This document shows positions 4,573-58,657 of a DNA stretch of 64,000 bases, in pieces. The DNA is from Escherichia phage outra. The stretch is taken from the sequence record MN850645.1. One strand, given 5' to 3'. Made by a program: the position numbers and the translations under genes. The notes beneath the pieces are model-generated. The model saw only the letters and a program-made list of their open reading frames with translations. It ran no database searches and had not been told where the DNA came from. Numbering within the stretch: position 1 is the stretch's first letter; every line of letters starts with the position of its first letter.

Positions 4573-4591
4573 GTAATACGGAGGATTACCC

Positions 4592-8855: not shown

Positions 8856-8857
8856 AA

Positions 8858-9595: not shown

Positions 9596-9598
9596 CAG

Positions 9599-34548: not shown

Positions 34549-34818
34549 CTAAAATGATTCGTTTGTCTCCATAATATATTGCATTTCCAAATCTTCCATA
34601 TGTTTCTTAAATTGGTAAACAATTTCCGATGGGGAAATATCTATATCAAAAAGTTCTTTTGTACCAGAATAAAACCTAATACCATCAACAATAAGACCAC
34701 CATAATAATCCCAATCACTTTCTCGTGAGAAAGGGTTAGGTTCTTCATAATAGTAATCTACTTCAACAATAATAGGTTCTTTATTATCTTGTTTATACTC
34801 AAAATCAAAAGTGTTCAT
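34549..34818 (-). CDS. hypothetical protein
   Basis: 89 aa acidic ORF coupled to the upstream gene (TAATG overlap). Confidence 0.4.
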   Translation of the reverse strand: MNTFDFEYKQDNKEPIIVEVDYYYEEPNPFSRESDWDYYGGLIVDGIRFYSGTKELFDIDISPSEIVYQFKKHMEDLEMQYIMETNESF

Positions 34819-35762: not shown

Positions 35763-35773
35763 ATAACTCCTTG

Positions 35774-36787
35774 TTAAAGACTTTCAATAACTTGACGACG
35801 CAGTTCATTGGCATCTGCAAGATTATAATTAAGACGAACGTGTTCTGCAAGCATCATACCACGATCTTCTGTGTATCTAGGGTTCCTCATTAGCTTGACA
35901 ACTTCATAATGCCAAGATGCTTTAGAGTCTGCATAGATAACAGCCTTTGCATCTACCGGATTGAAGTACGGCAGCACAGGAGAACAGATAATAGGAAGAC
36001 CCTTTGCACCTGCTTCCAAAATCTTCAAATTGCTTTTACAGTTGTTGAAGTCATTATCTACCAGGGGAGCAATTGCAATGCTGTGACCGTCATACACAGA
36101 CATATACTCACCTAAATTTTTAATAGCTGGTTTATACTGTGCATTTGGAATTTTACGTTTTATTTTAACCCACTCCGCAGTAGTTAGATACTGACTGTTA
36201 TTTCCAACAGGTGCAGAAGGATACACTTCATACCCTGCAATTGTCAATAGTGTATCATCAAATGTATTAGCTACAAGAGATAAATCAGGCTCGTGGCTTG
36301 CTCCTCCAGCCCAGATAATAGGCGTGTCAGAATTACGGTCTTTTGTCAAAGTAAATTGACCTTCGTCGTAAGGTAGTGCGTTTCTAATTACGACAACATT
36401 ACGATTTAAATGACGAATTTTGTAAGCTAGGTATTCTGTTGTTACAGTAACAACATCTGCTAACTTAACCATCTCTACAATAGTCTTTGAATGATTAGTA
36501 AATACGCCAGCCATATAATGTTCAGGATTAAGTGAATAAAAGTCATCTAAATCAACAATAATCTTAACACCTTGTGCCTTCAGGCGTTTAACCTCGTCTG
36601 CTCCACGAGAATACACTCTATTAAAAACTAAAACGTCTTTCTTAGGTTTAAACGTATTTCCAGCAAATGGCATTACAATACGATGGTAATCACAACCACT
36701 GCCTAACTTATTATCACACTTAAGTACAGGAGTATTAGGATTTACCATATTTTTGAGCCTCCTCATAAGAGATAAAAGTTTTACCAT
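35774..36787 (-). CDS. glycosyltransferase-like protein, GT-B fold candidate (paralog 2)
   Basis: 337 aa; tandem paralog of 34818-35762. Alternative in-frame starts at 36766 and 36748, the latter with a GAGGAGG RBS. Confidence 0.45.
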   Translation of the reverse strand: MVKLLSLMRRLKNMVNPNTPVLKCDNKLGSGCDYHRIVMPFAGNTFKPKKDVLVFNRVYSRGADEVKRLKAQGVKIIVDLDDFYSLNPEHYMAGVFTNHSKTIVEMVKLADVVTVTTEYLAYKIRHLNRNVVVIRNALPYDEGQFTLTKDRNSDTPIIWAGGASHEPDLSLVANTFDDTLLTIAGYEVYPSAPVGNNSQYLTTAEWVKIKRKIPNAQYKPAIKNLGEYMSVYDGHSIAIAPLVDNDFNNCKSNLKILEAGAKGLPIICSPVLPYFNPVDAKAVIYADSKASWHYEVVKLMRNPRYTEDRGMMLAEHVRLNYNLADANELRRQVIESL

Positions 36788-37421
36788 TGCGAAGATCCTC
36801 CAAGGATTGTTTATATTGTTCCCAGTTTACACCAATCCCCTGTTCTTTCTCTTCTTTTGACAGATTCGCAAAAGGTAAAGGATTGTCTCCAAATACATCA
36901 TCAGGATGGATAAACGCCATAATTCGAATAGGACATGGCACGCCTTGAATACCTCGGTTCAAACCTGCCAGTGGAACGCGATGAATCCACTCTGCATCTT
37001 CATATCCATAACCGTGGGTGTATGAGCGGAAATAGCCAGCTTTCTCAATAACTGCACGGGAATACATACCAAACTGGCACATACCTAGTTCCCAAATAAC
37101 CACTTCCCCTTCAATACCTTTTACTTTATCTTTAAAGTATTCAGGCATACCAAAGAAATCCCAACCATTTTCCTTCGCCTGTTTTACAAAATATGTTTCC
37201 CAACCTTGAACAACAGGATAGCAATCATCATCAAAAATAAACCAGTAATCATACCCTTCATCATAAAACTTTTTCATCAGTTCATTACGAGCATATGCAA
37301 CACCTTTTCGCTCCCGATCATACTGTACAACAAAAGTAGCATTAGGATCAGTCACAAGATAATCTTTAAGAGGACGCTTACCTACAGTAATAACACCAAC
37401 ACCAATTTTTGTATTTTCCAA
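36735..37421 (-). CDS. glycosyltransferase, family 2-like (GT-A fold)
   Basis: 228 aa; TTG start after AAGGAG; N-terminal IGVGVITVGKR, then RKGVAYARNELMK and DxD motif FIFDDDCYP, as in GT2 enzymes. Confidence 0.65.
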   Translation of the reverse strand: MENTKIGVGVITVGKRPLKDYLVTDPNATFVVQYDRERKGVAYARNELMKKFYDEGYDYWFIFDDDCYPVVQGWETYFVKQAKENGWDFFGMPEYFKDKVKGIEGEVVIWELGMCQFGMYSRAVIEKAGYFRSYTHGYGYEDAEWIHRVPLAGLNRGIQGVPCPIRIMAFIHPDDVFGDNPLPFANLSKEEKEQGIGVNWEQYKQSLEDLRNGKTFISYEEAQKYGKS

Positions 37422-37430
37422 AATAACTCC

Positions 37431-37994
37431 TTAAATAATTTTATTCATGTCTTGACAATGTAAAAGGTGTGAAATAGCTTTTCTAGGATCATCATTACCT
37501 AAACGGTATGTGTGAAATAAATATAACCCACGTAGTAAACCTAGCCTTTTATTGTTAGCGTGCAATGCTTTAGAGAAAATTATATCAAACTGTATTGATC
37601 TTTCCTCAAAAGGGATTTCATTCCACAGACTCTTACGAAAGAGAAGAAAGAATCCTGCTAAGATAGCATCTGTAGGTACTTCCTCTATTGAGTTTCCCCA
37701 TTCTAGATGTGCTCTTTTTGCAATCTCAATGTGGTGTAGTATATTCGGATCTTCACTTCTTTCATTATTAAATAATTGATATGTTGATCCCAATCTATTA
37801 CAAGATGCACCAAGAACATCAAAATCAGGATTTGAACGGACTATTGATTCCAGCCAAGCAGGTTGTTCTGGAAGAAGAAACATTGTATCAATGTCTCTTA
37901 GGCAAATCCAACTATCTTCTGGTAAGACACTTATTGTGTCATTGATACCTTTTCCAATATCTCCAGAAAGATAGGGAGTTATGTGAAATATCAT
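37431..37994 (-). CDS. putative glycosyltransferase (DxD-containing), first gene of the GT block
   Basis: 187 aa; contains ICLRDIDTMF; GGAGGG RBS; assignment is weak and rests mainly on context. Confidence 0.3.
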   Translation of the reverse strand: MIFHITPYLSGDIGKGINDTISVLPEDSWICLRDIDTMFLLPEQPAWLESIVRSNPDFDVLGASCNRLGSTYQLFNNERSEDPNILHHIEIAKRAHLEWGNSIEEVPTDAILAGFFLLFRKSLWNEIPFEERSIQFDIIFSKALHANNKRLGLLRGLYLFHTYRLGNDDPRKAISHLLHCQDMNKII

Positions 37995-38022
37995 ACTCCC
38001 TCCGTATTATTACTTTAGCATT

Positions 38023-38042
38023 TTTAGACTAAAAAGTCTAAA
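38023..38042. promoter_or_regulatory. 20 bp perfect palindrome TTTAGACT-AAAA-AGTCTAAA (operator or weak terminator candidate)
   Basis: Lies in the 57 nt gap between the gene ending at 38052 and the first GT-block gene starting at 37994. Confidence 0.3.
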
Positions 38043-38051
38043 TGGTTTTAC

Positions 38052-38246
38052 CTATTGATTACGTTTTGCGAGTTCCATTTGGATAGCTAAACTGTGATCT
38101 CGTGCTTCCATATACTCTTTATACGTTTCATTAAGATGATCACGACAAACATCACGCAGTTTAATCAATTTATCTGTAGGGATACCACTAAGATCATCCC
38201 AAGATTTTACAACTTCGCCAGTATCATTGATCCCAATGGTTTTCAT
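38052..38246 (-). CDS. hypothetical small protein
   Basis: 64 aa; AAGGAGG 6 nt upstream of the ATG. Confidence 0.4.
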   Translation of the reverse strand: MKTIGINDTGEVVKSWDDLSGIPTDKLIKLRDVCRDHLNETYKEYMEARDHSLAIQMELAKRNQ

Positions 38247-38454
38247 CTACAACCTCCTTAATTGCTACAGCACAGTTTTTGCAGATACACTGCCCTTTAC
38301 CTTTAGAAATCTGGATGTAAGGTTCATTTTCATTTTCGCCCTTACGTGAGTCATATATTACAGAATTGAAGCACACAACGCAAATATTTTTTAAGATTGT
38401 ATACTTATCAACTTTCTTTTTTGTTTTAAAGTTAACTTCAATAACATCAGCCAT
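38224..38454 (-). CDS. small zinc-ribbon protein (start revised)
   Basis: Two Cys pairs (CVVC ... CICKNC); the ATG at 38454 overlaps the upstream stop (ATGA), so it is preferred over the RBS-less ATG at 38502. Confidence 0.4.
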   Translation of the reverse strand: MADVIEVNFKTKKKVDKYTILKNICVVCFNSVIYDSRKGENENEPYIQISKGKGQCICKNCAVAIKEVVDENHWDQ

Positions 38455-38732
38455 CAGTGTAACACTCCCAGTATGTTGCTTTGTGACATAACCATAGAAC
38501 ATTCAACATTATCGTGACTACGTGAAAAACGTTCCCAAACATCTTCATCGACTCGTAAAGCTATACAAGGATAGACGTTATCATTGATCATTTCAATTGA
38601 ATAAACATCCATATTGTCTTCGTCTTCGATGAACATCATTGCAAACTGTTCTAAATGTTTCCTAATGTAATGTACATCCTCTTCTGTAAGACCAATAACA
38701 AGATAACTTGCAACGATAACGCCATCTTTCAT
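38454..38732 (-). CDS. hypothetical protein
   Basis: 92 aa; AAGGAGA 6 nt upstream. Confidence 0.4.
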   Translation of the reverse strand: MKDGVIVASYLVIGLTEEDVHYIRKHLEQFAMMFIEDEDNMDVYSIEMINDNVYPCIALRVDEDVWERFSRSHDNVECSMVMSQSNILGVLH

Positions 38733-38742
38733 CTATATCTCC

Positions 38743-39252
38743 TTAGCGATAGAATTGATGTTCTTTGTAGCGGTACACTAGAACCATATCTTTTTCCCAG
38801 TGTGCTCTTATTGTAGATTTTTTAAAGTATAATGCTCCTTTTGTAATATCTAATGCAATTCGTAATTCTGGAAAATGCGTATCGAGATAAAGTAGACGTT
38901 CTGCTATAGTCTTAGCTTCCTTCCACTTATCACGTTCCATAACGTTGAATGTCTTTGTGTAAGAGAATTGTCCTTTTTGAAACAAAACTTCTTTTATAGT
39001 ATCAGGGAAATATGAATCTCTAGCCCTATTCAATACTACATTACCAACAGCAGACATACCTCGCTTTCCTTGATTACGACTTTCTGCATAGATTGCACAA
39101 GCTAATAGATTTTCTTTACTATCACGCTTTGTACACTTGTGAACTACTTTAGCAGTTTTTACGTTTGCAGCTTCGGCTTGCGCCACAACAGGTGTAAATG
39201 TAAAAGCAGTTAAGGATAGTAACGCAATTGCGACAAAGGTTTTTATTGACAA
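38743..39252 (-). CDS. secreted cell-wall hydrolase, SleB / Hydrolase_2-like
   Basis: N-terminal signal peptide (FVAIALLSLTAFTFTPVVAQA); core CAIYAESRNQGKRGMSAVGNVVLNRA resembles the SleB-type hydrolase signature; TTG start after TAGGAGG. Confidence 0.55.
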   Translation of the reverse strand: MSIKTFVAIALLSLTAFTFTPVVAQAEAANVKTAKVVHKCTKRDSKENLLACAIYAESRNQGKRGMSAVGNVVLNRARDSYFPDTIKEVLFQKGQFSYTKTFNVMERDKWKEAKTIAERLLYLDTHFPELRIALDITKGALYFKKSTIRAHWEKDMVLVYRYKEHQFYR

Positions 39253-39344: not shown

Positions 39345-39947
39345 TTAGATGTTGTAAACCTTTGTATGAGTTACTACACCATCTTCTACAAAATCAATAC
39401 GTTCTTGATCCGTAACTAGTGCAGACAATACTTTAAATTTAATTGTTACACGTTCAAAAGCTGGTTGACCATCTTTAAGATAATTATGTTCAGTTGTTAC
39501 TGTCTTGTTTACAAAATCAACTTTTGCTTTACCGTTTTCACGCAAGTGGAATGTTTTTCCTGCTTTATACACAATTTCAACATTACCTTCGAGAGTAATT
39601 CCTTCAAAAAGTTCACCCTCTTCTTCATTTTCTTCACTTTTGAACAGACGACGAAACTCTTCCATATCAAGATAAACAACATCTTCAGAATAACTATCAG
39701 TAAGGTATGTCTTACCATCCATTAACCCGAAATATTGCCAGATCGCAGAATAAACATCACTAGTTGATCCAAGGGTTTCTCTGAGTTTAGTTCCACGGAT
39801 TACTTCATAAACTTCAAAATTGAAACCAGACTGCAAAGCATTAAACAGTACATCACTAACTTCTAAAGCATAATCTTCATTGTTGTCAATATCCACAAGA
39901 AAATTACCGCTGCGAATAAGTTTTTGACCTTCTAAAGTAATACCCAT
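39345..39947 (-). CDS. hypothetical protein
   Basis: 200 aa acidic ORF; GAGGAGA 5 nt upstream; preceded by the terminator of terD. Confidence 0.4.
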   Translation of the reverse strand: MGITLEGQKLIRSGNFLVDIDNNEDYALEVSDVLFNALQSGFNFEVYEVIRGTKLRETLGSTSDVYSAIWQYFGLMDGKTYLTDSYSEDVVYLDMEEFRRLFKSEENEEEGELFEGITLEGNVEIVYKAGKTFHLRENGKAKVDFVNKTVTTEHNYLKDGQPAFERVTIKFKVLSALVTDQERIDFVEDGVVTHTKVYNI

Positions 39948-39960
39948 TGTTTTCTCCTCT

Positions 39961-39990
39961 TCTATTTAAAATATGCGCCCCGAAGGGCGC
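39961..39990 (-). terminator. rho-independent terminator after terD
   Basis: Hairpin GCGCCC-TTCG-GGGCGC followed on the minus strand by ATATTTTAAAT. Confidence 0.6.
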
Positions 39991-39999
39991 TATGATTTA

Positions 40000-40596
40000 T
40001 TACTCGAACCAATCGTCGCCAGCGCCAAACGCTTTAACTACATCATAAATGTCAAGTCCAGCTTTACCTACACCATATGCTTTCAGTTTCCATTCGCTAT
40101 CTTCCCGCACCAGGGAGGCAACGTGGCAAATGGTATTACCTGCAAGTTCTGGAGCCAAGAAGTCAAAATCCAGCAGTTCAACGTTACGTTCATCATCGAA
40201 GATTTTAAGGAAACCTTCGGTAGCGTGACCAAGGCGTTTCTTACCCGTTTCGTCATCAATAGTGATTACGAATGCAATTTCCTGTGCTTCAGCAGAGATA
40301 TTATCCAGTGTAACATCAATCTGCTCCATTTGTCCTACACCGTCACGAACATCTTCACCTGCAAAAGTAGAACGTTCAGGATCAAATTTCTGTGCGTAGC
40401 ATACCAGGTGGCGAGGAGACAACAGTTCCGGCAGACCAGATGCATTGTGTCGGCAAATCAGAGCACTAACATCCAGATCCAGTTTTTCGTTAGATTTCCA
40501 AGAGAATTCCAGACGAATGCGTTTCAGTGCTGGTGCAATCTTTTTCAGAGAAACTTTTTCGCTAGAACCTTTTTTCAGGGAAATTTTCTGAGTCAT
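40000..40596 (-). CDS. terD: TerD-domain protein (tellurite resistance / stress protein family)
   Basis: 198 aa; alignable by eye along its length to bacterial TerD (KISLKKGSSEKVSLKK / DLDVSALI / GEDVRDGVGQMEQIDVTLDNI / SEWKLKAYGVGKAGL), including the Ca-binding-type acidic motifs; RBS AAAGGAGA. Confidence 0.8.
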   Translation of the reverse strand: MTQKISLKKGSSEKVSLKKIAPALKRIRLEFSWKSNEKLDLDVSALICRHNASGLPELLSPRHLVCYAQKFDPERSTFAGEDVRDGVGQMEQIDVTLDNISAEAQEIAFVITIDDETGKKRLGHATEGFLKIFDDERNVELLDFDFLAPELAGNTICHVASLVREDSEWKLKAYGVGKAGLDIYDVVKAFGAGDDWFE

Positions 40597-40633
40597 AATT
40601 TATTATCTCCTTTGTTGTTAATTTACGTTGTCT

Positions 40634-40661
40634 ATTTTACTAATCTTTTCTACAAAGTCAA
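40634..40661 (-). promoter_or_regulatory. sigma70-like promoter upstream of terD (TTGACT-16 nt-TAAAAT)
   Basis: On the minus strand, -35 TTGACT (40661-40656) and -10 TAAAAT (40639-40634), about 35 nt upstream of the terD start. Confidence 0.5.
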
Positions 40662-40668
40662 GCGTTTT

Positions 40669-41463
40669 TTACGCTTTTGCTCCAAATTTTTTAACCCACT
40701 CGCCAAACTCTTCGGATAGCAGTTTATCGTAAAGTTCTTCGTCAGACAAGGACAAATCTGCAATACCGATAAAATCAACGTTATCGTATTCTTTTGCCAA
40801 GTCTTTCAGGAATTTAAAGTTTGCATTACCTACACCAACCATAAACCAGTAAACAGGAGTGTTGCGGTGTTTGTTCAGCAAACTACGTACTGCTGAAGTA
40901 TCCATGTTCTCCCCGTCAGTTTGGAAGAAAATCATTGCAGGAGTACGATCAACTTGTGCATCAGTATCTACAACCTGTTCTACAACAGTACGTGTAACTT
41001 CTACACGTTCTTTTTTACCAGTTAGTTTAGCAAGGAAACCCTTAGCCGGAACTTCTTCATACTCAACGACTTCGCGTGTAATATTTTTCATAGGTACACT
41101 ACCGAAGTATGTATCATAGATCTCTTGCATTACTGGAGCATAAGCTGTACCACCATTGATGCAAACATTAGACATACAAGAGCCGACATAATCATCATAT
41201 ACATCAGCCGTTGCAGGAGGCAGTTCAAAAGAAGAACTATTGAAAGCCCACATGTCAATCTGTGCATTATCATCAAACTTCATACCAAACGGCAGTAGCT
41301 TACCTACAAAATCACTAACAGTGCCATCACGATACAGCTCACACATACTACCCGAAATATCTAAGGCGCTACCGACACGAAGAACAACATCGTTAATCTT
41401 TTTCTTACGCAGAGATACGGTAAGAGTTTCTTGACGTTTTTTAAGACTGATTTTATTGGACAT
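40669..41463 (-). CDS. vWA-domain protein (TerY-like)
   Basis: 264 aa; MIDAS motif DISGSM near the N-terminus and later FQTDGEN; basic N-terminal KISLKKRQ; adjacent to terD and telA. Confidence 0.55.
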   Translation of the reverse strand: MSNKISLKKRQETLTVSLRKKKINDVVLRVGSALDISGSMCELYRDGTVSDFVGKLLPFGMKFDDNAQIDMWAFNSSSFELPPATADVYDDYVGSCMSNVCINGGTAYAPVMQEIYDTYFGSVPMKNITREVVEYEEVPAKGFLAKLTGKKERVEVTRTVVEQVVDTDAQVDRTPAMIFFQTDGENMDTSAVRSLLNKHRNTPVYWFMVGVGNANFKFLKDLAKEYDNVDFIGIADLSLSDEELYDKLLSEEFGEWVKKFGAKA

Positions 41464-41464
41464 A

Positions 41465-41734
41465 TTATTTCTCCTTTCTGAGTGTAATGTTAGTAACTTC
41501 TAAATCCACTTCTACCATTTCTGTATCATACGAAATACAGCTAAGTTGACCTCTTTGCGAACCGTTCAGACACATTGCTTGGTTTGTATTAACTTTAATA
41601 AACACTAAGTTTCTGAACGTATCTAAACCAGAATCTTGATAGGCAACATAATATACAAATGTATCACCTACGTCAAGTTCTCCAAAACATTTAGGTTCAT
41701 CTGATTTGTCGTCTTTGATATTAAATTTAAGCAC
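41465..41734 (-). CDS. hypothetical protein (GTG start)
   Basis: 89 aa; GTG at 41734 after AAGGAGGAG; overlaps the upstream gene by 8 nt. Confidence 0.35.
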   Translation of the reverse strand: MLKFNIKDDKSDEPKCFGELDVGDTFVYYVAYQDSGLDTFRNLVFIKVNTNQAMCLNGSQRGQLSCISYDTEMVEVDLEVTNITLRKEK

Positions 41735-42290
41735 TATCTCCTCCTTTACCTACTTTCCAACCTAAATAGAAAGCCTCTCTAGTGATTTTTTGCAACTCGT
41801 TTAAAGAGATAGTTACAACTAAATCATCTTCAATTTCTAGCTTTGAGTCTTCTTCTGTCTCAATGCAAGTATTATGCACTTTGTGGTAAGGATTGTCAAC
41901 ACGTTTAAATTTATTATTTTCAGTGTTGAAGAAGCAATCTGGATCTTCTTCTCCATCACCCCAACCCTGGTTAGGATCTTCTTCAGATCTTTCTGTTGGG
42001 ATCTCACCTGTAAAGTGCTCTTCTAATACCAGAGCAATCCCATCTCCAAGATCGGAAGAGAACATCAAATTACAAACTTCTTCCCAAGGCATAGACCACT
42101 TAAATCTTTTACGATTGCCATGTTTATCTTCTTCGTTAGAGAAAACACTACCATAGCTATCATAATTCCCATACATCTCTTCGACAACCTTACCACCTTT
42201 CAAAAGAAATAGGTAGCAAGGAGAGCCATCAAAAGAGGTAGAAAGAGCAGCATTACCAGACTCTTTGCACAAGAAACTAAAACACCCCAT
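41727..42290 (-). CDS. hypothetical acidic protein
   Basis: 187 aa; start coupled to the upstream stop. Confidence 0.4.
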   Translation of the reverse strand: MGCFSFLCKESGNAALSTSFDGSPCYLFLLKGGKVVEEMYGNYDSYGSVFSNEEDKHGNRKRFKWSMPWEEVCNLMFSSDLGDGIALVLEEHFTGEIPTERSEEDPNQGWGDGEEDPDCFFNTENNKFKRVDNPYHKVHNTCIETEEDSKLEIEDDLVVTISLNELQKITREAFYLGWKVGKGGDSA

Positions 42291-42490
42291 TATACACCAG
42301 CCTTAAGATCAATTAAAGCCAAAGTTGTTTCAGAGTGTGTTTGCTCGTCTACAGGTGCAGTCATATGATAATACAAAAAATCTTCGGCATCATACCAATC
42401 TGATTCTTGACCTTGTTTCCAACCATCAATGAAAGCATCTTCCATAATGGTTTGCAATTCTTCACGAGTTAAGTGAATATCTTTACTCAT
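42290..42490 (-). CDS. hypothetical small protein
   Basis: 66 aa; translationally coupled on both sides. Confidence 0.4.
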   Translation of the reverse strand: MSKDIHLTREELQTIMEDAFIDGWKQGQESDWYDAEDFLYYHMTAPVDEQTHSETTLALIDLKAGV

Positions 42491-42696
42491 TACACATTCT
42501 CCTCTTTTACCAATTCCATCGTTGAATTGTCAAAACCATCTTTAGAAGAATAGGTATAGACAGAACGTAGTTCTCGCAGGACAGTGAATACATTAGGATC
42601 ATCTAACCAAGCATCCTGGAGGAGAACATAACGATCTTCATTATCATACTGAACAGCAATCATAGAACCAGACAGTTTGTAAATTTTAATATTCAT
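42490..42696 (-). CDS. hypothetical small protein (start revised)
   Basis: The ATG at 42696 has AAGGAGA 8 nt upstream and lies after the telA stop; the track start at 42723 is a GTG inside that RBS. Confidence 0.4.
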   Translation of the reverse strand: MNIKIYKLSGSMIAVQYDNEDRYVLLQDAWLDDPNVFTVLRELRSVYTYSSKDGFDNSTMELVKEENV

Positions 42697-42709
42697 AATA
42701 TATTTCTCC

Positions 42710-43813
42710 TTAAAGTAGACCACGTTTAACAGTTTGAATCATACCATCTTCAAGAGATTGCACTTCTTGAATGTAATCAATACGAGCAGCACGGGCTTCA
42801 GTGTTGATTCGGTTAGTTTCTTCCAACATTTTAACCAAGTTTTCTTGATCACGACGTAATGTTTCAATATCCAATACTTGACGATTAGCAAGTTGTGTAG
42901 CTTCAATTTGGTTTTGTGCAGCCAAATCACTACCCATTGCAATCGCAGCATTAAATTCATTTAGTACATTGTTCTGTGTATCGGCTGCTTTCTTCTGGCG
43001 TAGACTTTCAATATACATAGAAAAGTTTGCAGAGTAAGCAGGGATAACATTATTCACAATATTACGGGCTGATCGCATCAAACTTGCAGATACTTTCTGC
43101 ATACTTTGTACACGTGGCCCCATCTGAACACATAGTAAGCGTAAGGCTTTCAGGTCTGCAATACGAATTTCAAGCAGATCCATAGTATCACGAGTACGTT
43201 GACGCTCTTCTACCTCATTTTCAGGCAGTGTATTAAGGCGAATTTCTTCTTTTTCATAAGTAGCTGTTAGAAGCTCTATATCCCTGTTTAAACTAAGGGC
43301 ATATTTTGCAATAGCCTCTTCTAAACGTTGCAGATATCGTAAAGAATCTTCTTCTTTTTTCAAGTCTGTTTGGAGTGTCTTTACCAAACCTTCAATACGG
43401 TTATTGATGGTGTCAAATTCTCCAAACAAATCTTCTTTCATACCTAAAACTTTCTTAACTAGTTTACCTAAACCTTTAGATTGTTTAATAGAGTTAGGAT
43501 CAAGTTGCTTTGCTTGCTTAATAAGCGCAGTTAAACGTTCACTCATTTCATCTCCCTGAGATGAACGCTGGTGTTTAAGCACTTCAGCATTAAGGTTACG
43601 AAGAGTAAGTCCTGCATCAGCACCAACCTGTTCAATCTCTTCACGAGACATTGGAGGCAGCATTTGTACAGGTCGTGCAACAGCAGGGGCATATACAGGA
43701 CTTGCATCCATAGCAGTTGGAGCAAACAAAGACTTACTTTTTTCTGTTGTTGCCGTGAATACACTCATTTCAGACGGTTTGCTTTTTACGGCACTGATAA
43801 AAGGACTGGACAT
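42710..43813 (-). CDS. telA: TelA-like toxic-anion-resistance protein
   Basis: 367 aa, predominantly helical coiled-coil with the size and architecture of TelA/KlaB/YaaN-family proteins; GGAGGAAA RBS; flanked by terD/vWA and terC. Confidence 0.5.
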   Translation of the reverse strand: MSSPFISAVKSKPSEMSVFTATTEKSKSLFAPTAMDASPVYAPAVARPVQMLPPMSREEIEQVGADAGLTLRNLNAEVLKHQRSSQGDEMSERLTALIKQAKQLDPNSIKQSKGLGKLVKKVLGMKEDLFGEFDTINNRIEGLVKTLQTDLKKEEDSLRYLQRLEEAIAKYALSLNRDIELLTATYEKEEIRLNTLPENEVEERQRTRDTMDLLEIRIADLKALRLLCVQMGPRVQSMQKVSASLMRSARNIVNNVIPAYSANFSMYIESLRQKKAADTQNNVLNEFNAAIAMGSDLAAQNQIEATQLANRQVLDIETLRRDQENLVKMLEETNRINTEARAARIDYIQEVQSLEDGMIQTVKRGLL

Positions 43814-43861
43814 TCAATTTCCTCCATATTCTTTAGTAGATGGTGATACTTCTATACCACC

Positions 43862-43889
43862 ATCATAACACAAGTTAAGTATTAAACAA
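43862..43889 (-). promoter_or_regulatory. candidate sigma70-like promoter upstream of telA (TTGTTT-16 nt-TATGAT)
   Basis: -35 at 43889-43884 and -10 at 43867-43862 on the minus strand, about 45 nt upstream of the telA ATG. Confidence 0.35.
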
Positions 43890-44733
43890 ACATATCTAAA
43901 TAATTTGTAGTAATAAATGCTCCATCTGCTTCCAGATTAACATAACCCGTGGTATTAGCAGTTAAGAAATCCAGATCGAAGGACTCTTTAACACCCCGTA
44001 CCTCAACACGAGAGATATCGAATACAGGTAGTGTAACAGCCTCTTCGTGCAATACCGTACCTTTGTAGGTTGCCTTAATGATAAACTTGATATTACCCGT
44101 TCCAGCATCATACAAAACACTTTCAAACCCTTTGAGAGTATATTTATCACCAGAAGTGAAGTGCAAAGTTGCTTTGTTTACAGTACGTTTTTTACGAGGA
44201 GTTCCTTTCACACGTTTATGATCACTACGTTTTTTGTATTTAGGAATGAATACAAACGATACACTCTCAAGAAAGGTATCAACATCAAGGATTTTAATAT
44301 CCTCTGTTGCAGCAAATTTTGAAGTCGTTGCATCAAAATGCTTTTCCCTGCGATCATACATAAAGATATCAAACCGATCTTCTAAATCAAACAAATTATG
44401 TATTTTAATTTCAGAATGCTTGCGCATTGCAGCAACCTTGAACTCTTCAAAACGTGGGTGTTCTACAAGTTCTTCAAGTTTTACACCAAAGACAGTATAT
44501 TGCTTCGAAGTCTTTTCTGGTGTTGGCATTACAGAAGCATAATCACCGATTGCGCTCTTAAAGCAAAATTGTTCTTGACCTGTATTTTTACCAACGAATT
44601 TACAGTATTCGTCATTGTGCATACTTTCCTTGGTAGTACCAACAAACTCAAAACCATCTTTATTCTTCTCAAGAATTTCTTGATTAAAGATCCAACCTTC
44701 CAGGCGATACACTTTACCAACTTCTAGTTTCAT
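43882..44733 (-). CDS. hypothetical protein
   Basis: 283 aa; AAGGAGA 5 nt upstream; no motif recognised. Confidence 0.4.
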   Translation of the reverse strand: MKLEVGKVYRLEGWIFNQEILEKNKDGFEFVGTTKESMHNDEYCKFVGKNTGQEQFCFKSAIGDYASVMPTPEKTSKQYTVFGVKLEELVEHPRFEEFKVAAMRKHSEIKIHNLFDLEDRFDIFMYDRREKHFDATTSKFAATEDIKILDVDTFLESVSFVFIPKYKKRSDHKRVKGTPRKKRTVNKATLHFTSGDKYTLKGFESVLYDAGTGNIKFIIKATYKGTVLHEEAVTLPVFDISRVEVRGVKESFDLDFLTANTTGYVNLEADGAFITTNYLDMFV

Positions 44734-44768
44734 CTGTTTCTCCTTCTTATTTAATCTGTATTAAATTA

Positions 44769-45359
44769 TTAACGACGACGTGAGCTACTAAAACTACGTT
44801 TCGACGAAGAATAACTTTTCGAAGACTTACTATAAGAGCTAATAGGACTTGAGTAAGACTTACGAGCAGAGTAATCACTATTCACTTTTGTTGTTGATGG
44901 GCGTGAATACGTTTGTACACTTTGCTGCTTAATTGTGTTTTGTTTAGTGGTTGTATATGTATTCCCTTGTTTATCATAAAACCTATGCTTTTGTGTTGTA
45001 TATGCTTTACTATTAGTTGTAGGAGCAGCGTTGTTATTGATAATTGTTGTATTGCTACCGCCATCTCTATAACCACCACCGCCACTATTACCACTCAACA
45101 TATGACCAAGAAGCATACCTGTAGCAAACTCACCTACGCCAGAAGAACCACTGCCGCCTCCTTGCACAACAACTGTTGAAGGTTGTGCAGGTGCTGCTTG
45201 AACAACTTGAGGTGCAGGCTGATTTACATATTGTTCATCTACCATCTGATTTGGTGTTTGTTGGTAACGTTGATTTTGTACATTTTCAGAATCATCACAA
45301 CCTACCAGCAATGCACTACCTAAAACAACTGCAACAATAAAAGATTTAATGTTTTTCAT
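44769..45359 (-). CDS. lipoprotein with glycine-zipper motif and Ser/Tyr/Lys-rich basic C-terminus
   Basis: Start revised to the ATG at 45359 (GAGAGGG 7 nt upstream); signal peptide with lipobox LLVGC; GGGSGSSGVGEFATGMLLGHMLSGNSGGGG resembles glycine-zipper outer-membrane lipoproteins. Confidence 0.5.
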   Translation of the reverse strand: MKNIKSFIVAVVLGSALLVGCDDSENVQNQRYQQTPNQMVDEQYVNQPAPQVVQAAPAQPSTVVVQGGGSGSSGVGEFATGMLLGHMLSGNSGGGGYRDGGSNTTIINNNAAPTTNSKAYTTQKHRFYDKQGNTYTTTKQNTIKQQSVQTYSRPSTTKVNSDYSARKSYSSPISSYSKSSKSYSSSKRSFSSSRRR

Positions 45360-45552
45360 TTGTAACCCTCTCATTTAAAATCTCAACACAATTTTTAAAA
45401 TCCCTAGAGAAACAATACATCTGTTCTCCGTTCCTGTTGATAGTAATTGTATGGTTATCAATATATGTTGTCAAGATAAAAATCAAACAAAACAAACCTA
45501 GAGCAAAACAAATATTTTCAAACAGAATCCAAAGAACACGTAAAACCACCAT
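45346..45552 (-). CDS. small membrane protein
   Basis: 68 aa; one strongly hydrophobic N-terminal helix; GAGGTG RBS just downstream of the terC terminator. Confidence 0.35.
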   Translation of the reverse strand: MVVLRVLWILFENICFALGLFCLIFILTTYIDNHTITINRNGEQMYCFSRDFKNCVEILNERVTNEKH

Positions 45553-45561
45553 CAGATCACC

Positions 45562-45583
45562 TCAATAAAGCCCCCGAAGGGGC
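45562..45583 (-). terminator. rho-independent terminator after terC
   Basis: Hairpin GCCCC-TTCG-GGGGC followed on the minus strand by TTTATTG. Confidence 0.55.
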
Positions 45584-45591
45584 TTAATGAA

Positions 45592-46569
45592 TTAAGCAAC
45601 AGCCTGGTCTTCTTTTTCAGGGAAGATTAAACTTGCAAGAACACCCAGCCCAAGAGTACCTAACACAATATACATACTGATCGTCGGGTCAATGTGTGCT
45701 GGCAGGAAACTCACTTTTGCGTGCAGAGTTTCTGCAAACGGGTGATACATCAGTTTTACACCCACAAACACCAGGACTACGATAACTGCTTTCTCCAGAT
45801 GAACCAAATACTTCAGTGCAACACTAAGAACAAAGAACAGAGCACGTAAACCTAAGATTGCACAGAGCATCGAAGAGAACACCAGCAGAGGTTCTTGTGT
45901 CACTGCAATTACTGCTGGAACAGAGTCTACTGCAAAGATTACGTCAACCATTTCCATTACAAACACACAAACCAGAGCCGGAGTTGCTACACGAACACCA
46001 TTTTTGATTGTGAAGAACTTCTCACCATCCATCTGATCAGATACAGGGAACAGCTTACGAACAATGCGAGTAGCCCAGTGTTTAGAGTAATCAACTTCTG
46101 CATCATTATCTCCAGCGAATACCATTTTAGCCGCACAGAAAAGGATGACAGCACCGAAGAAGATATTAACATACCAGCCCAAACTCAACAAGTAAGTACC
46201 TACTGCTACAAACACACCTCGGAAGACAATCGCACCTGCAATACCCCAAAGTAGAATCTTGTGCTGCAAGTGTGTGCTTTTAATACCAAAACTTGCGAAT
46301 ACTGCTACAAATACTACTAAGTTATCTACAGAAAGAGATTTCTCCAACACATACCCACTCAAGAACAAGCTCGCAAAATCAGCACCGTGTTGGAAGTATA
46401 CAAAACCATAGTAGGCTAATGATACCCCAATCCAGAAAATTGACCAGCCAATTGCAGATTTAAATGAAATTTCTTTGTTTTCTCTGTGTCCAAAGAAGTC
46501 AATACAAATCGACAAGACTAAAATACCCACTAAAACAACCACATCAATAATTGGGAAACCCAGTTGCAT
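45592..46569 (-). CDS. terC: TerC-family integral membrane protein
   Basis: 325 aa; multiple TM helices; EKSLSVDNLVVFVAVF matches the TerC-family signature; RBS AAAGAGGAG. Confidence 0.75.
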   Translation of the reverse strand: MQLGFPIIDVVVLVGILVLSICIDFFGHRENKEISFKSAIGWSIFWIGVSLAYYGFVYFQHGADFASLFLSGYVLEKSLSVDNLVVFVAVFASFGIKSTHLQHKILLWGIAGAIVFRGVFVAVGTYLLSLGWYVNIFFGAVILFCAAKMVFAGDNDAEVDYSKHWATRIVRKLFPVSDQMDGEKFFTIKNGVRVATPALVCVFVMEMVDVIFAVDSVPAVIAVTQEPLLVFSSMLCAILGLRALFFVLSVALKYLVHLEKAVIVVLVFVGVKLMYHPFAETLHAKVSFLPAHIDPTISMYIVLGTLGLGVLASLIFPEKEDQAVA

Positions 46570-46587
46570 TCTTTTCTCCTCTTTAAT

Positions 46588-46606
46588 GCGGAGGACAATC
46601 CTCCGC
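46588..46606 (-). promoter_or_regulatory. stem-loop in the terC 5' leader (GCGGAGG-ATTGT-CCTCCGC)
   Basis: Perfect 7 bp G/C stem between a predicted promoter and the terC RBS; no U-tract. Confidence 0.4.
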
Positions 46607-46618
46607 TCTATGTCTTAT

Positions 46619-46646
46619 ACTATAAACTGTTTTTAAAGAAAGTCAA
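46619..46646 (-). promoter_or_regulatory. sigma70-like promoter upstream of terC (TTGACT-16 nt-TATAGT)
   Basis: -35 at 46646-46641 and -10 at 46624-46619 on the minus strand. Confidence 0.45.
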
Positions 46647-46895
46647 CTAGTTCAGTTCTGTAATTTTAAGTTTATCTTCTTTGTTAATGACAGGGAAAGC
46701 TACAGCATCACCTACGTCATCAATAAAGCAAATAGCAAGACCACCTTCCACTTTGCTGATTTGACCATTAAAGGCGTGATACGGGGCAGGAACTTGATCT
46801 CCATCTTCAAGGAGAATAGCCTCGTAAACCTTGCCGATAGTACAATCACGAGTGTTTCTAAATTTTTCAAGCACTTCAACATTTACTTTACGCAT
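46647..46895 (-). CDS. hypothetical protein
   Basis: 82 aa; GAGAGGA 8 nt upstream. Confidence 0.4.
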   Translation of the reverse strand: MRKVNVEVLEKFRNTRDCTIGKVYEAILLEDGDQVPAPYHAFNGQISKVEGGLAICFIDDVGDAVAFPVINKEDKLKITELN

Positions 46896-46909
46896 ATAAA
46901 AATCCTCTC

Positions 46910-47116
46910 TTATTTGTTAGATTGAAAGATACCACGAAGTACCGCAAGAATGAACGTCACACAGACTACACTCCAAAACGTTACAGGAACATGATGCCAG
47001 TCTAAGCCGATAATGTCAATCATATAGTTGTATGCTAAAAGCAGTAGCCAACTAGGGATTAACACAATCAAAAACACAACAATAAAACAACCTAATACTG
47101 CTAAAACACCTGCCAT
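46910..47116 (-). CDS. small membrane protein (two TM helices)
   Basis: 68 aa; AAGGAGA 5 nt upstream; two hydrophobic helices. Confidence 0.45.
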   Translation of the reverse strand: MAGVLAVLGCFIVVFLIVLIPSWLLLLAYNYMIDIIGLDWHHVPVTFWSVVCVTFILAVLRGIFQSNK

Positions 47117-47125
47117 ACTTTCTCC

Positions 47126-47842
47126 TTATTTCAGTTTGTAAACAATTACATTTAAACCTTTGTTTACTAGAGTTTCTTCGATCATAAGTTTTACAATACT
47201 CCAAGAACCTCCAGCCAAACCACAACCAAGCATTGGTAAACCTACAATTTTACCGCCTGAAGATACAACATCGTCTCCCATACTATCTAACGCATTGTAG
47301 ATAGCTTCATAATTCAGGTCACGCTTACCTTCCTCACGACGACTATAACCATATTGTCCATATAAATTATAAATTGTCAAATTGTTTTCTATATATTTGG
47401 TAAACGTACCTAATTTTTTATAATCACCATGTTTAGTGGCACAATCTGCTTTAAACGCACCAGGCCACTTGCTTTTAATTTTTGGTGCAATACCACTACC
47501 CATAGTGCAAAAACAGTTACAGCAGTGTGCTATAGCGTCTATATCGCCTCTCTCGGCTGCTGCTAAAAGATCACCGTATACCTCAATGATACCTGCCGGA
47601 TAACTTGTTACAATTTCATCTTCCCAATACATTTTCTCTACACCACCGATCAGTGCAAAGTTTTGTGTAATGCGATCATCAATATAGTTAAGACCTGAAA
47701 CATACACAGCATATTCATCCTGTGCTGTAATACCTTGTACACGAATTCTTAAGACACCATCTTTATCTGTTGCTACACGCCCAAAATCTTTTTCTGTAAT
47801 ATTGGTGATAGGATCTCCGAAAGTCATTACTTTATTAGACAT
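47126..47842 (-). CDS. macrodomain protein, TARG1/DarG-type ADP-ribosyl hydrolase candidate, with extra N-terminal domain
   Basis: C-terminal ~150 aa match TARG1-type macrodomains (GDLL...AIAHCCNCFCTMGSGIAPKIKSKWP ... LGCGLAGGSWSIVKLMIEE ... VIVYKL). Start revised to the ATG at 47842 (AAAGGGG 6 nt upstream, overlapping the upstream stop). Confidence 0.7.
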   Translation of the reverse strand: MSNKVMTFGDPITNITEKDFGRVATDKDGVLRIRVQGITAQDEYAVYVSGLNYIDDRITQNFALIGGVEKMYWEDEIVTSYPAGIIEVYGDLLAAAERGDIDAIAHCCNCFCTMGSGIAPKIKSKWPGAFKADCATKHGDYKKLGTFTKYIENNLTIYNLYGQYGYSRREEGKRDLNYEAIYNALDSMGDDVVSSGGKIVGLPMLGCGLAGGSWSIVKLMIEETLVNKGLNVIVYKLK

Positions 47843-48692
47843 AATAATCCCCTTTAACATTAGATTTGTTGATAATGTTGCTTTCAAAAAATTGACGTAG
47901 GAAATCAAAGTTCTCTTTATATTTTTCAATGTTATTGTAGCCTTCTGCAAGGCAACCAAAGAACAGTTGTTCTACATAATACAAAGGAAGCTGTGAAAGT
48001 GCAATTTTAAAATCAACTTCGCTTTGACTCATTAGATACTTAATAGGACGAACCAAACATTTAGCATCAGTTTCTTGTTTAATCATTTTAATAAAAGCTG
48101 CCAGGTTATTGATATAGTTGAAGTTAAGTGCAGCTTCGGTATTGGCTTCTGTACCTTCATACTTTGCAAAGTACAGGAAAAACGTATCGTTTTCAACACC
48201 TTCTTTGTCTAAAATTTCAATAAGTTTTTCTTCGTGCGTTCCTGTAATATTAACATCATCAATGAAAATCAGAGTTTTATTACCCCAGAAATCACGATTG
48301 ATAGAGAAAGTGTCACCATCGATCAAAGCCTTACGATCTTCTTTGCTAAGAAATCCATAATCATTGATATAGCTCACTTTACGATGAACGATATCCCACT
48401 CCACTGCTTTACCTCCTTTGATAGAGATTAGGTAGTTGAGGTGATCTACAAAATGTTCAGATAACACTGTAGCTGCATTTTTCACATAGTTATATGGAGA
48501 TGGAATAACAACAAAACTTTCATTTACCAGTCGTTCTTCATACTTGGAAAAGAAACTTTCAGCCAGAATGCGCCCCATTCTTTTTGCTGCCTGGTTACTA
48601 CCAAACTTTAGCTTGGAATAATCTGCAATGTTAAATTTTGCTTCCTTCAGGTTAGTAAAAGTATTAGCAAAATGTTGAATTTGATTACGCAT
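47835..48692 (-). CDS. phosphoribosyltransferase (PRTase type I fold) protein with C-terminal extension
   Basis: 285 aa; PRPP-binding-loop-like motif LIFIDDVNITGTHE; AAGAGGAA RBS; start overlaps the HAD gene by 8 nt. Confidence 0.55.
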   Translation of the reverse strand: MRNQIQHFANTFTNLKEAKFNIADYSKLKFGSNQAAKRMGRILAESFFSKYEERLVNESFVVIPSPYNYVKNAATVLSEHFVDHLNYLISIKGGKAVEWDIVHRKVSYINDYGFLSKEDRKALIDGDTFSINRDFWGNKTLIFIDDVNITGTHEEKLIEILDKEGVENDTFFLYFAKYEGTEANTEAALNFNYINNLAAFIKMIKQETDAKCLVRPIKYLMSQSEVDFKIALSQLPLYYVEQLFFGCLAEGYNNIEKYKENFDFLRQFFESNIINKSNVKGDYYV

Positions 48693-49341
48693 TAATAAGT
48701 TCCTCTTTTTTAAGTTTAGCCAACAAGTCTTCTGGATTAATAATATGACAGAACTTCATCCCTATGTCAACAGCTTTTCCATCATAGATCAAACTATCTC
48801 CAACGTGTAAGATCTCCTCTGGTGCGAGATCAAACGTTACCATTTCATCAAAAGAGAGTTTAAAAAACCTAGGATCTGGTTTACACAAGCAAAACTCGTC
48901 AGAAAAATGCATAAAGTCGAATGGTAATTTTGTCAAGCCAGAATATACAGCTAAAAAACTACCAGGTACAAAATTAGTATTGCTTTTAATACTCAAAGAA
49001 TAGGTTGAACTTAGCTCTTCCAACTTCTTGCAAAGTTCAGGGTTTAATGTTGGAGGATGTTTTATAAACATTGCTAAACAGTCTCTTTTTAACCCATCTA
49101 CTTTATCAAGATCAATGTTCAAACGAGCAGAAAGTGTTTCCCAAGCATTTCTAGATGTTCCACAAATGCCTTTTTCTGCTTTTAAATCCAGGAGAGTTTT
49201 TACCTCTTTATATACGGTAGCTGCTTCTACCTCAGAACAAGAGGCATACTCGGCAATAACCTTGTTGCGTTCTTCTGCATACAAAGGATTAGCAGTAATA
49301 AGAGTATTCCATACATCAAAAGAAATATGCTTAACAGTCAT
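48685..49341 (-). CDS. HAD-superfamily hydrolase (phosphatase / nucleotidase-like)
   Basis: Start revised to the ATG at 49341 (GGAGGA 6 nt upstream); motif I FDVWNTL (Asp+2 replaced by Trp) and motif IV HVGDSLIYDGKAVDIGM. Confidence 0.5.
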   Translation of the reverse strand: MTVKHISFDVWNTLITANPLYAEERNKVIAEYASCSEVEAATVYKEVKTLLDLKAEKGICGTSRNAWETLSARLNIDLDKVDGLKRDCLAMFIKHPPTLNPELCKKLEELSSTYSLSIKSNTNFVPGSFLAVYSGLTKLPFDFMHFSDEFCLCKPDPRFFKLSFDEMVTFDLAPEEILHVGDSLIYDGKAVDIGMKFCHIINPEDLLAKLKKEELINA

Positions 49342-49510
49342 TTTTAATCCTCCGTCCAAAAGAATATCATCTGCTTAATTTTATTGATCTCTTGATGTAG
49401 TAACTTTCCAGCATGTGATTGATCTTTAATATTGACAGCAAGAATTTCAAGTTCCGTTAGTTTTTCTTGGATAGCTTTATATTCATCATCTGTAAGCATT
49501 TTCTTCCCCT

Positions 49511-58294: not shown

Positions 58295-58657
58295 TTAAAC
58301 GTTTTCTAAATCTTTTAAGGCATTACCCAACGTTAGAACAATAACATCGTTTGCTGCCTCTTCCCCATTGATATTGGTGAAATTTGGTGTGACAAAAGTA
58401 ACCATATAAAACTCGTCCACCTGGAAGACAGCAATAACACCATCCATCTTAACATCTTGACGAAAGGAAAAACCAATCATCTTCTCTTGCAAAGGCATAT
58501 CCCCTTCCTTCATTACCGCCAGGGAGTTTTCAGGAATGTTATATTTATCTGATCCGATGTAGATGTACGTAATGTTATCTTTATCGTGATGATACAGGGT
58601 TGCTTTTTCCATATCTAAACCTGACAGATCAAATACGTTAATTTCTTGTGTAGTCTT
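58295..58657 (-). CDS. hypothetical protein (start revised)
   Basis: The ATG at 58657 has GGGAGGA 4-5 nt upstream; the longer track ORF (to 58735) would overlap the upstream gene by about 100 nt. Confidence 0.4.
   Translation of the reverse strand, partial: KTTQEINVFDLSGLDMEKATLYHHDKDNITYIYIGSDKYNIPENSLAVMKEGDMPLQEKMIGFSFRQDVKMDGVIAVFQVDEFYMVTFVTPNFTNINGEEAANDVIVLTLGNALKDLENV

Follow-up and report, generated by a model that had tools for sequence, protein, structure and literature searches.

What does a virulent-type phage gain from genes that are named for tellurite resistance? This question is raised by Escherichia phage outra, of which we analyzed a 64,000-nucleotide stretch (sequence record MN850645.1; hereafter the window), and we conclude from sequence comparison that its minus-strand region at ~40000–49341 almost certainly encodes a phage Ter system. 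A first-pass annotation had proposed a Ter neighborhood ending at 46569. The neighborhood was borne out, but it does not stop there: it continues to 49341 with genes for a Macro-domain protein, a phosphoribosyltransferase of the PRTase_3 family, and a hydrolase of the HAD superfamily. The explanation that we favor, though tentatively and short of calling it probable, is that this Ter system would protect the infected cell by means of a cation-dependent membrane assembly and a nucleoside-like ligand.

The Ter block is contiguous phage DNA

The 9.4 kb at 40000–49400 are 100% identical to the corresponding DNA of Escherichia phage vB_EcoM_ESCO8 (OM386653.1), a Justusliebigvirus, and recur with full coverage at 95–99% identity in more than 50 other phi92-like phages (Justusliebigvirus, Stephanstirmvirinae). 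At least 53 phage genomes carry the Ter block in the same genomic context, and comparison across phage genomes showed it to be syntenic in both Justusliebigvirus and its sister genus Phapecoctavirus. GC (guanine plus cytosine) content is uniform across the window (0.35–0.40), and the GC skew flips a single time, at the strand switch. Positions 1 to ~26000 hold plus-strand tail, baseplate, and tail-fiber genes, and from ~26000 on all genes lie on the minus strand, in the order DNA methylase, DNA polymerase, primase/helicase, four glycosyltransferase-like genes, a secreted SleB/CwlJ-type cell-wall hydrolase, the Ter block, an AAA ATPase, nrdD/nrdG, tRNA-synthetase-like genes, a UvrD helicase, and many small open reading frames (ORFs). 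The Ter block is thereby flanked by DNA polymerase and primase/helicase on one side and by NrdDG and UvrD on the other; it is genuine, contiguous DNA of a virulent-type myovirus and lies beside the replication genes.

Bacterial contamination or an assembly chimera, which the first-pass annotation had named as a possible undoing of its proposal, has a negligible probability. Against it stand the full-coverage identity of 95–100% over 9.4 kb in at least 53 independent phage genomes, the synteny in a second genus, and the uniform GC content. Furthermore, none of 2,246 plasmid TerD-family hits exceeds 32% identity to phage TerD, and no close relative turned up when the single phage PRTase sequence was searched against 185,579 bacterial genomes.

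Core Ter proteins and a HAD-PRTase_3 pair

Profile hidden Markov model searches recovered all four proteins that had been named in the first pass, namely TerD, a vWA protein, a TelA-like protein, and TerC, at significant E-values (Table 1) and with Pfam scores well above the curated gathering thresholds. TerD aligns end to end with solved TerD structures (PDB 2kxt, 8.6e-15; PDB 3ibz, 3.3e-13). The vWA protein displays a complete metal-ion-dependent adhesion site (MIDAS; D35-x-S37-x-S39, T106, and D183), as had been claimed, and is 26% identical to the TerF-like vWA protein of phage phiPsa374. TelA belongs to phrog_5890 (“tellurite resistance”), with relatives in 244 phage records; a structure search found no solved structures for relatives of TelA or of the vWA-TerF protein. 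TerC falls into the Alx “metal homeostasis” subfamily of NCBIfam (TIGR03718, 2.1e-96), with 322.9 bits against a cutoff of 246.4.

The genes that extend the block are tightly packed, with an overlap of 8 nt between HAD and PRTase_3 and likewise between PRTase_3 and Macro as annotated. (Some ORF starts in the mechanically compiled list are too long; in the deposited annotation, the Macro, HAD, and lipoprotein genes encode 238, 218, and 196 amino acids [aa].) The loop of PRTase_3 that binds phosphoribosyl pyrophosphate (PRPP), DDVxITGTHE, is intact, with invariant D145, D146, T150, G151, and H153. With the phage PRTase as query, a full HMMER search returned 527 relatives, among them several fusion proteins with HAD at the N-terminus. 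Motif I of the HAD protein reads D-x-W, not D-x-D. A motif alignment showed D-x-W to be common to phage and bacterial Ter-linked HADs, the proteins compared being those at 48685–49341 of the window, at 9267–9968 of the Pedobacter locus L052, at 4070–4762 of the Rhizobium phage RHph_Y65 locus L008, and at 8316–8990 of the Caulobacter phage CcrColossus locus L009. Because D-x-W lacks the usual general acid/base residue, the “phosphatase” step of the pathway proposed for the pair may be atypical.

The Macro-domain protein matches DarG in PADLOC (6.4e-13) and in NCBIfam (1.4e-12), where its 47.6 bits are far below the cutoff of 250; with that score and with no DarT-like neighbor in Pfam or PADLOC, the locus does not qualify as a DarTG system. 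Its gene adjoins PRTase_3 in Phapecoctavirus as well (47% identity) and is absent from the bacterial loci described below, marking it as a phage-specific addition. The Macro protein could be an ADP-ribose-removing counter-defense factor. Its macro domain was the sole match in a PADLOC scan for defense systems. The TerY-P defense system was likewise not found: PADLOC matched neither the vWA protein nor its neighbors, and Pfam gave no kinase or PP2C match. In Pseudomonas phage phiPsa374, a Macro homolog of 35% identity (3840–4346 of locus L004) lies beside a nicotinamide phosphoribosyltransferase gene.

Relation to bacterial Ter operons

To relate the pair to bacterial loci, an alignment of diverse PRTase relatives was scanned against one genome per bacterial species, and 80 loci were fetched. 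A HAD homolog lies directly upstream of the PRTase in 78 of them, a TerD homolog within ~3 kb in 58 (usually as the next gene), and a TerC, 38–40% identical to phage TerC, a few kb further on in 16. HAD-PRTase_3 thus neighbors TerD, TelA, and TerC in bacteria, and in composition the phage block is equivalent to a bacterial Ter operon in which the genes have been rearranged and phage-specific ORFs inserted. This composition also agrees with the Ter network of Anantharaman, Iyer & Aravind 2012, to the extent that it is summarized in PMC7824862.

The Pedobacter sp. KBW06 locus (L052) illustrates the likeness, reading HAD-PRTase_3-TerD-TerD-TelA-x-TerC, where TerC is of the Alx subfamily and x is an unknown 320-aa gene without resemblance to the vWA protein or the 283-aa protein of the phage block. 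The two loci hold the same six families, with a D-x-W HAD upstream of and overlapping PRTase_3 and an Alx-type TerC at 38–40% identity. They differ in that the phage has one TerD in place of two, adds the TerF-type vWA and Macro proteins, follows another gene order, and contains many inserted ORFs. Enzymes of the ATP-grasp and TIM-barrel types occur neither in the Pedobacter stretch examined nor in the phage.

Other phages carry comparable sets. Acinetobacter phage ME3 and Caulobacter jumbo phages have TerD, TerC, a TerF-type vWA protein, and TelA in common with the phage block, and ME3 also has a PRTase and a HAD (PMC7824862). In the unrelated phage phiPsa374 (PMC9796965), a compact TelA-x-vWA-TerC-TerD core keeps the same relative order, whereas PRTase_3 is missing and the proteins are only 23–26% identical to those of the phage block. 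Klebsiella phage ZCKP1 (PMC6141743) is a Phapecoctavirus with a syntenic block. Compared to the published phage Ter systems, the phi92-type block is distinguished by lineage-specific inserts (the 283-aa protein, the lipoprotein, the 187-aa protein, and small ORFs) and by a Macro gene beside PRTase_3.

These comparisons bear on whether the block is one system or two or three independent modules side by side, in which HAD-PRTase_3-Macro would serve a nucleotide, NAD, or ADP-ribose pathway (counter-defense or salvage) and TelA, vWA, TerC, and TerD would form a separate membrane module. Such independence is suggested by HAD-PRTase_3 pairs without adjacent Ter genes in the unrelated large phages RHph_Y65 (L008, 4070–6406) and CcrColossus (L009, 8316–9849), by the four-gene core of phiPsa374, a phage without PRTase_3 whose Macro gene is the neighbor of a nicotinamide phosphoribosyltransferase gene, by the affinity of the Macro domain to that of DarG, and by a promoter between TerC and the genes upstream. 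In most of the bacterial loci, on the other hand, TerD comes immediately after the pair, with TelA and TerC behind it in some, and the complete set is unbroken and identically ordered in the two Stephanstirmvirinae genera. We argue for a functional link between HAD-PRTase_3 and Ter because the bacterial pair directly precedes TerD in most loci, and regard independent modules as an unlikely alternative.

Two further observations concern the pair. In RHph_Y65, it adjoins a gene annotated as nicotinamide mononucleotide (NMN) adenylyltransferase/Nudix, hinting at a link with NAD or nucleotide metabolism. In addition, a 13-kb contig of a metagenome-assembled genome labeled “Proteobacteria bacterium” (JAEZZU010000022.1, locus L010) holds HAD, PRTase_3 (65% identity), and the start of Macro in the phage order; it is most likely a fragment of a Phapecoctavirus-like phage binned into a bacterial genome.

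With the plasmid system terZABCDEF (IncHI2 plasmid R478, and the O-islands of enterohemorrhagic E. coli), the phage shares TerC, one protein with a TerD domain, and a TerF-like vWA domain. The R478-type set of seven genes (the TerD paralogs TerZ, A, D, E, and F, with TerB and TerC) is nevertheless not present: the ORFs scanned yielded a single TerD, a single TerF-like vWA protein, and TerC, and no TerB, TerA, TerZ, or TerE. Identity between the phage TerD and plasmid TerD-family proteins is at most 32%, and TelA is not part of terZABCDEF. In klaABC (kilA/telA/telB) of plasmid RK2, TelA occurs with membrane partners, and there is neither a vWA protein nor a PRTase/HAD pair. The Bacillus subtilis operon yceCDEFGH unites TerD paralogs, TerC (YceF), and TelA (YceH) in one envelope-stress operon, again without a vWA protein or PRTase/HAD.

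The block might be taken literally, as a fitness “moron” conferring resistance to tellurite or another xenobiotic on the host. The family names and the “tellurite resistance” labels in GenBank and PHROG point that way, and the idea has been raised for other phages (PMC11256456). We consider it highly improbable: a cell infected by a phage of virulent type would not survive to benefit, and TerB and the multiple TerD paralogs of terZABCDEF are missing from the ORFs scanned, the same reason for which the authors of the phiPsa374 study judged resistance unlikely (PMC9796965).

Conservation, selection, and age

Comparison with two relatives at 98–99% DNA identity gave synonymous versus nonsynonymous counts of 22:0 for TerD, 36:4 for TelA, 28:3 for TerC, 16:2 for vWA, and 12:1 for PRTase_3, with ratios of nonsynonymous to synonymous polymorphism (pN/pS) of 0–0.09 for these five genes. 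The counts indicate that the Ter genes are kept by strong purifying selection. Between the genera, protein identity to Phapecoctavirus is 81% for TerD, 79% for TelA, 76% for the 187-aa protein, 71% for TerC, 67% for vWA, and 65% for PRTase_3, which is the same range as for non-Ter proteins of these genera (NrdD, 80%; NrdG, 66%; helicase, 58%). The distance of the phage TerD from plasmid TerD and the lack of a close bacterial PRTase relative show that the block is an old resident of the lineage and not a recent capture.

Transcription signals

Each unit of the block had initially been credited with its own promoter and terminator. This was not upheld: promoter-like sites numbered 40 versus 36.0±6.3 in shuffled sequences, and terminator-like sites 8 versus 6.2±2.1. 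From TelA to vWA, six genes overlap or abut (gaps of −14 to +1 nt), and near-consensus intergenic promoters within the block are found ahead of TerD and TerC only. On this reading of the DNA, the block is probably made up of a small number of transcription units.

Between the TerC promoter and the start codon lies a GC-rich hairpin without a T-run (46606–46588), and another GC-rich hairpin (49742–49721) precedes the small ORFs upstream of HAD. A strong hairpin without a T-run is also seen in the TelA leader (43830–43860), with no match in Rfam. The hairpins at 46588–46606 and 43830–43860 may serve in RNA processing or stability. In bacteria, Alx/TerC genes are often controlled by riboswitches. 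Ahead of the phage TerC, no riboswitch was detected, as an Rfam scan of the window returned no family at gathering score and only chance-level hits at E≤1 in 46400–47000; neither a yybP-ykoY nor a PRE riboswitch was found in the TerC leader.

Membrane partners and proteins without a known family

The first-pass annotation had also listed a glycine-zipper lipoprotein, two small membrane proteins, and five interspersed ORFs without a recognizable family, and all of these held up. The lipoprotein combines a lipobox with a central, zipper-like stretch rich in Gly, which shows 47% identity to its Phapecoctavirus counterpart. Its Cys26 (numbered in the ORF at 44769–45374) is followed by Asp-Asp at positions +2/+3. 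Because of the Asp at +2, and under the sorting rule established for E. coli lipoproteins, it is predicted to be retained in the inner membrane. The two small membrane proteins have one (45346–45552) and two (46910–47116) transmembrane (TM) segments, and the former matches DUF6693 weakly (2.4e-04, below cutoff).

The five interspersed ORFs (89, 187, 66, 77, and 283 aa) have no Pfam match, and all belong to existing PHROG families of unknown function. In the 283-aa protein, residues 183–252 alone resemble a Phapecoctavirus protein. An all-against-all phmmer comparison found no paralogy among the block proteins, except for a short helix motif that the 66-aa protein has in common with the C-terminus of the 187-aa protein.

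The 187-aa protein had been suggested as a divergent TerB or TerD. Its AlphaFold2 (AF2) model is confident (pLDDT 83.8) and found no fold match in PDB or BFVD, neither to TerD nor to a TerB-like helical bundle, and the suggestion is therefore rejected. The N-terminal domain recurs at 50–65% identity in ~290 metagenomic protein clusters from uncultivated phage contigs (294 homologs), and among cultured phages the family is restricted to Stephanstirmvirinae. Its motifs (MGCFSFLCK...GNYDSYG...DPNQGWG...PxH) include invariant G2, C3, S5, C8, DPxQGWG, P134, and H136, and the domain may be an uncharacterized enzyme or metal-binding fold. As a candidate Ter partner the family was rejected: all four of the distant contigs compared place it in the company of replication or nucleotide-metabolism genes and show no Ter gene close by, and we treat the 187-aa protein as a passenger, not a Ter component. 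Finally, the 200-aa ORF beyond TerD has only homologs of at least 94% identity, is absent from Phapecoctavirus, and gave an unusable AF2 model (pLDDT 38).

Table 1. Genes and signals of the Ter block, in order of position.
Feature	Position	Strand	Evidence and remarks
200-aa ORF, phi92-genus only	39345..39947	-	Downstream of the TerD terminator-like hairpin; block membership uncertain; no Pfam match
Palindromic hairpin	39975..39990	both	GCGCCC-TTCG-GGGCGC; terminator-like, just after TerD
TerD-domain protein	40000..40596	-	Pfam PF02342, E 5.1e-28, full length
Sigma70-like promoter	40634..40661	-	TTGACT-16-TAAAAT, in the 72-nt gap upstream of TerD
vWA-TerF-like protein	40669..41463	-	Pfam PF10138, E 7.2e-39; ~55-aa insertion
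89-aa ORF	41465..41734	-	1-nt gap upstream of vWA; paralog downstream of vWA in Phapecoctavirus; no Pfam match
187-aa protein	41727..42290	-	N-terminal ~138 aa form a strongly conserved, uncharacterized phage domain; no Pfam match
Two small ORFs (77/68 aa and 66 aa)	42290..42723	-	Translationally coupled, between TelA and the 187-aa gene; no Pfam match
TelA-family protein	42710..43813	-	Pfam PF05816, E 7.9e-34 over residues 57–362
283-aa ORF, phi92-lineage specific	43882..44733	-	2 protein clusters among 5.8 billion sequences; pN/pS 0.04–0.16
Lipoprotein	44769..45359 (mechanical ORF 44769–45374)	-	Lipobox LVGC, Gly-rich zipper-like segment, Ser/Lys-rich tail; no Pfam match
68-aa single-TM membrane protein	45346..45552	-	Hydropathy; 49% identity in Phapecoctavirus
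Terminator-like hairpin	45564..45583	-	GCCCC-TTCG-GGGGC followed by TTTATT; just after TerC; terminator annotated at the equivalent place in phage Schickermooser
TerC/Alx-family integral membrane protein, multi-TM	45592..46569	-	Pfam PF03741, E 1.2e-38
Intergenic region upstream of TerC	46588..46646	-	Sigma70-like TTGACT-16-TATAGT at 46646–46619
82-aa ORF, phi92-lineage only	46647..46895	-	phrog_17459; no Pfam match; no homolog in the Phapecoctavirus locus L003
68-aa two-TM membrane protein	46910..47116	-	Hydropathy; between Macro and TerC in both genera; 60% identity in Phapecoctavirus; phrog_16065
Macro-domain protein, DarG-like	47126..47842	-	Pfam Macro, 1.6e-06 (residues ~129–276 of the long ORF)
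PRTase_3 (ComF-like type I phosphoribosyltransferase), Ter-associated type	47835..48692	-	Pfam PF15610, 1.1e-41
HAD-superfamily hydrolase, first gene of the biosynthetic pair	48685..49341	-	Pfam Hydrolase, 7.2e-06; NCBIfam HAD-IA families

A proposed mechanism and its alternatives

The mechanism that we propose would proceed as follows. The block would be transcribed in few units, before the late phase, from the sigma70-like promoters ahead of TerC and TerD. TerC, the two small TM proteins, and the inner-membrane-retained lipoprotein would form or alter a site in the inner membrane, on whose cytoplasmic face TelA, the MIDAS-bearing vWA protein, and TerD would assemble into a complex dependent on divalent cations. 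From PRPP and some base, HAD and PRTase_3 would make a ligand, a nucleotide or a nucleoside-like compound, by which the assembly is loaded or triggered. The resulting change in the envelope and ion state of the infected cell would keep out the DNA of superinfecting phages, or colicin-type toxins, until lysis.

By analogy with plasmids, such protection of the envelope against superinfection is possible, if doubtful. Plasmid ter loci confer resistance to tellurite, phages, and colicins, according to the passages of PMC9796965, PMC6141743, and PMC8386662 that cite them, and their phage inhibition and colicin resistance are the sole ground on which the exclusion step is proposed. In its most specific form, the proposal describes a self-contained, small-molecule-controlled exclusion machine, in which a nucleoside or nucleotide made by the atypical (D-x-W) HAD and PRTase_3 would load TerD, TelA, and vWA onto a TerC-centered inner-membrane site, and this site would then close the cell to incoming phage DNA or colicins; this form we think unlikely.

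The metal-binding features of the block can also be read differently, as a metal-homeostasis helper that handles Mn2+ through TerC/Alx, Ca2+ through TerD, and Mg2+/Mn2+ through the vWA MIDAS, keeping phage enzymes and the dying host working in an auxiliary metabolic or stress-tolerance role and not excluding competitors. TerC scores above the curated cutoff for the Alx subfamily, and PMC10197570 describes Alx as a Mn2+ exporter under riboswitch control. The TerD sequence matches the solved Ca-binding TerD fold, the MIDAS is intact, and the block lies beside the anaerobic ribonucleotide reductase genes nrdD/nrdG. This role would leave TelA, vWA, and the nucleoside-making pair unexplained, however, and it fits poorly with the partly lost acidic loop of TerD and with the lack of a riboswitch upstream of the phage TerC in Rfam. 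We consider it rather improbable.

Several observations weigh against the protective Ter system that we favor. The acidic loop of TerD, GDGDDE, is reduced to GVGQME, so that the Ca-binding loop is partly degenerate. TerB had no match at E≤0.01 in any ORF scanned (the block and 20 other minus-strand ORFs of at least 100 aa in the window). TerB is required for plasmid ter phenotypes. In the same set of ORFs, Pfam gave no match to ATP-grasp enzymes or to TIM-barrel/HpcH (aldolase)-type enzymes; Anantharaman reportedly placed both types, in 2012, in the full Ter biosynthetic module. TerC of the Alx subfamily is now regarded as a Mn2+ exporter (PMC10197570), which points to metal handling and not to exclusion. 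The existence of HAD-PRTase_3 without adjacent Ter genes in two phages suggests that the pair may act independently, and the proposed timing of expression rests on promoter consensus matches that are not enriched over shuffles. Lastly, the literature searched contained no experiment on any phage Ter gene.

Flanking genes and related records

Directly downstream of the Ter block, 34818–39252 (minus strand) hold the signal-peptide-bearing SleB/CwlJ-type hydrolase and the four glycosyltransferase-like genes, which together with the block make up ~15 kb of apparently envelope-directed genes within the replication region. A DUF4326 protein (1.5e-21) is encoded at 58638–59024 (minus strand); this family is predicted to link NAD-derived signaling with DNA modification (Iyer et al. 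2021, PMC7824862). Relative to OM386653.1, ORF coordinates shift by 3 nt near 61.4 kb and by ~450 nt near 28–29 kb. The window, identical to ESCO8 across the Ter block, thus either has indels versus ESCO8 elsewhere or comes from a very close relative. In GenBank MG065645.1 and four other “Campylobacter phage” records (~146 kb, labeled C. jejuni), TelA and PRTase_3 are 99–100% identical to those of E. coli phi92-like phages; the Campylobacter host label is probably wrong, or the phages are contaminants.

Prior knowledge and significance

The Ter block is already known, its genes having been annotated and phage Ter systems and the exclusion hypothesis having been published in 2018–2022. In phi92, gp172, gp173, and gp178 were listed in 2015 as TerD, TerD, and tellurite-resistance proteins (PMC4690881). 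GenBank labels in this genus include “tellurite resistance,” “TerC,” “VWA domain-containing protein,” “phosphoribosyltransferase,” “macrodomain protein,” and “HAD-like,” and a Phapecoctavirus RefSeq record names the Pfam domains TerD, vWA-TerF-like, TelA, TerC, and PRTase_3. The ZCKP1 paper of 2018 reported four tellurite-related genes and proposed protection from superinfection (PMC6141743). Ter systems of phages, with PRTase and HAD among their components, were described by Iyer et al. 2021, who proposed the same role and mentioned “certain other related smaller tailed phages” (PMC7824862), and similar ideas are voiced in the papers on Klebsiella phage phiKp34 (PMC8386662) and phiPsa374 (PMC9796965). 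The ideas raised in the first pass, that the block may alter the envelope, exclude superinfecting phages, or counter a host Ter system, are not new, being in print for related phages. What is added here is the neighborhood evidence tying HAD-PRTase_3 to bacterial Ter operons, the selection data, and the negative results on the ORFs without a family.

For phage therapy, it would be a mistake to take the “tellurite resistance” labels of these phages as a sign of transferable resistance genes. The function of Ter proteins has been an open question since the 1990s, and a compact set under selection in a virulent coliphage that plates on K-12 offers a simple test system. Phi92-like phages grow on E. 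coli K-12, which is the host in the records of BASEL phages such as EmilieFrey and PaulScherrer. If the block is indeed a small-molecule-controlled exclusion machine, it would perhaps be the most tractable system in which to find the long-sought Ter metabolite and to learn how it acts.

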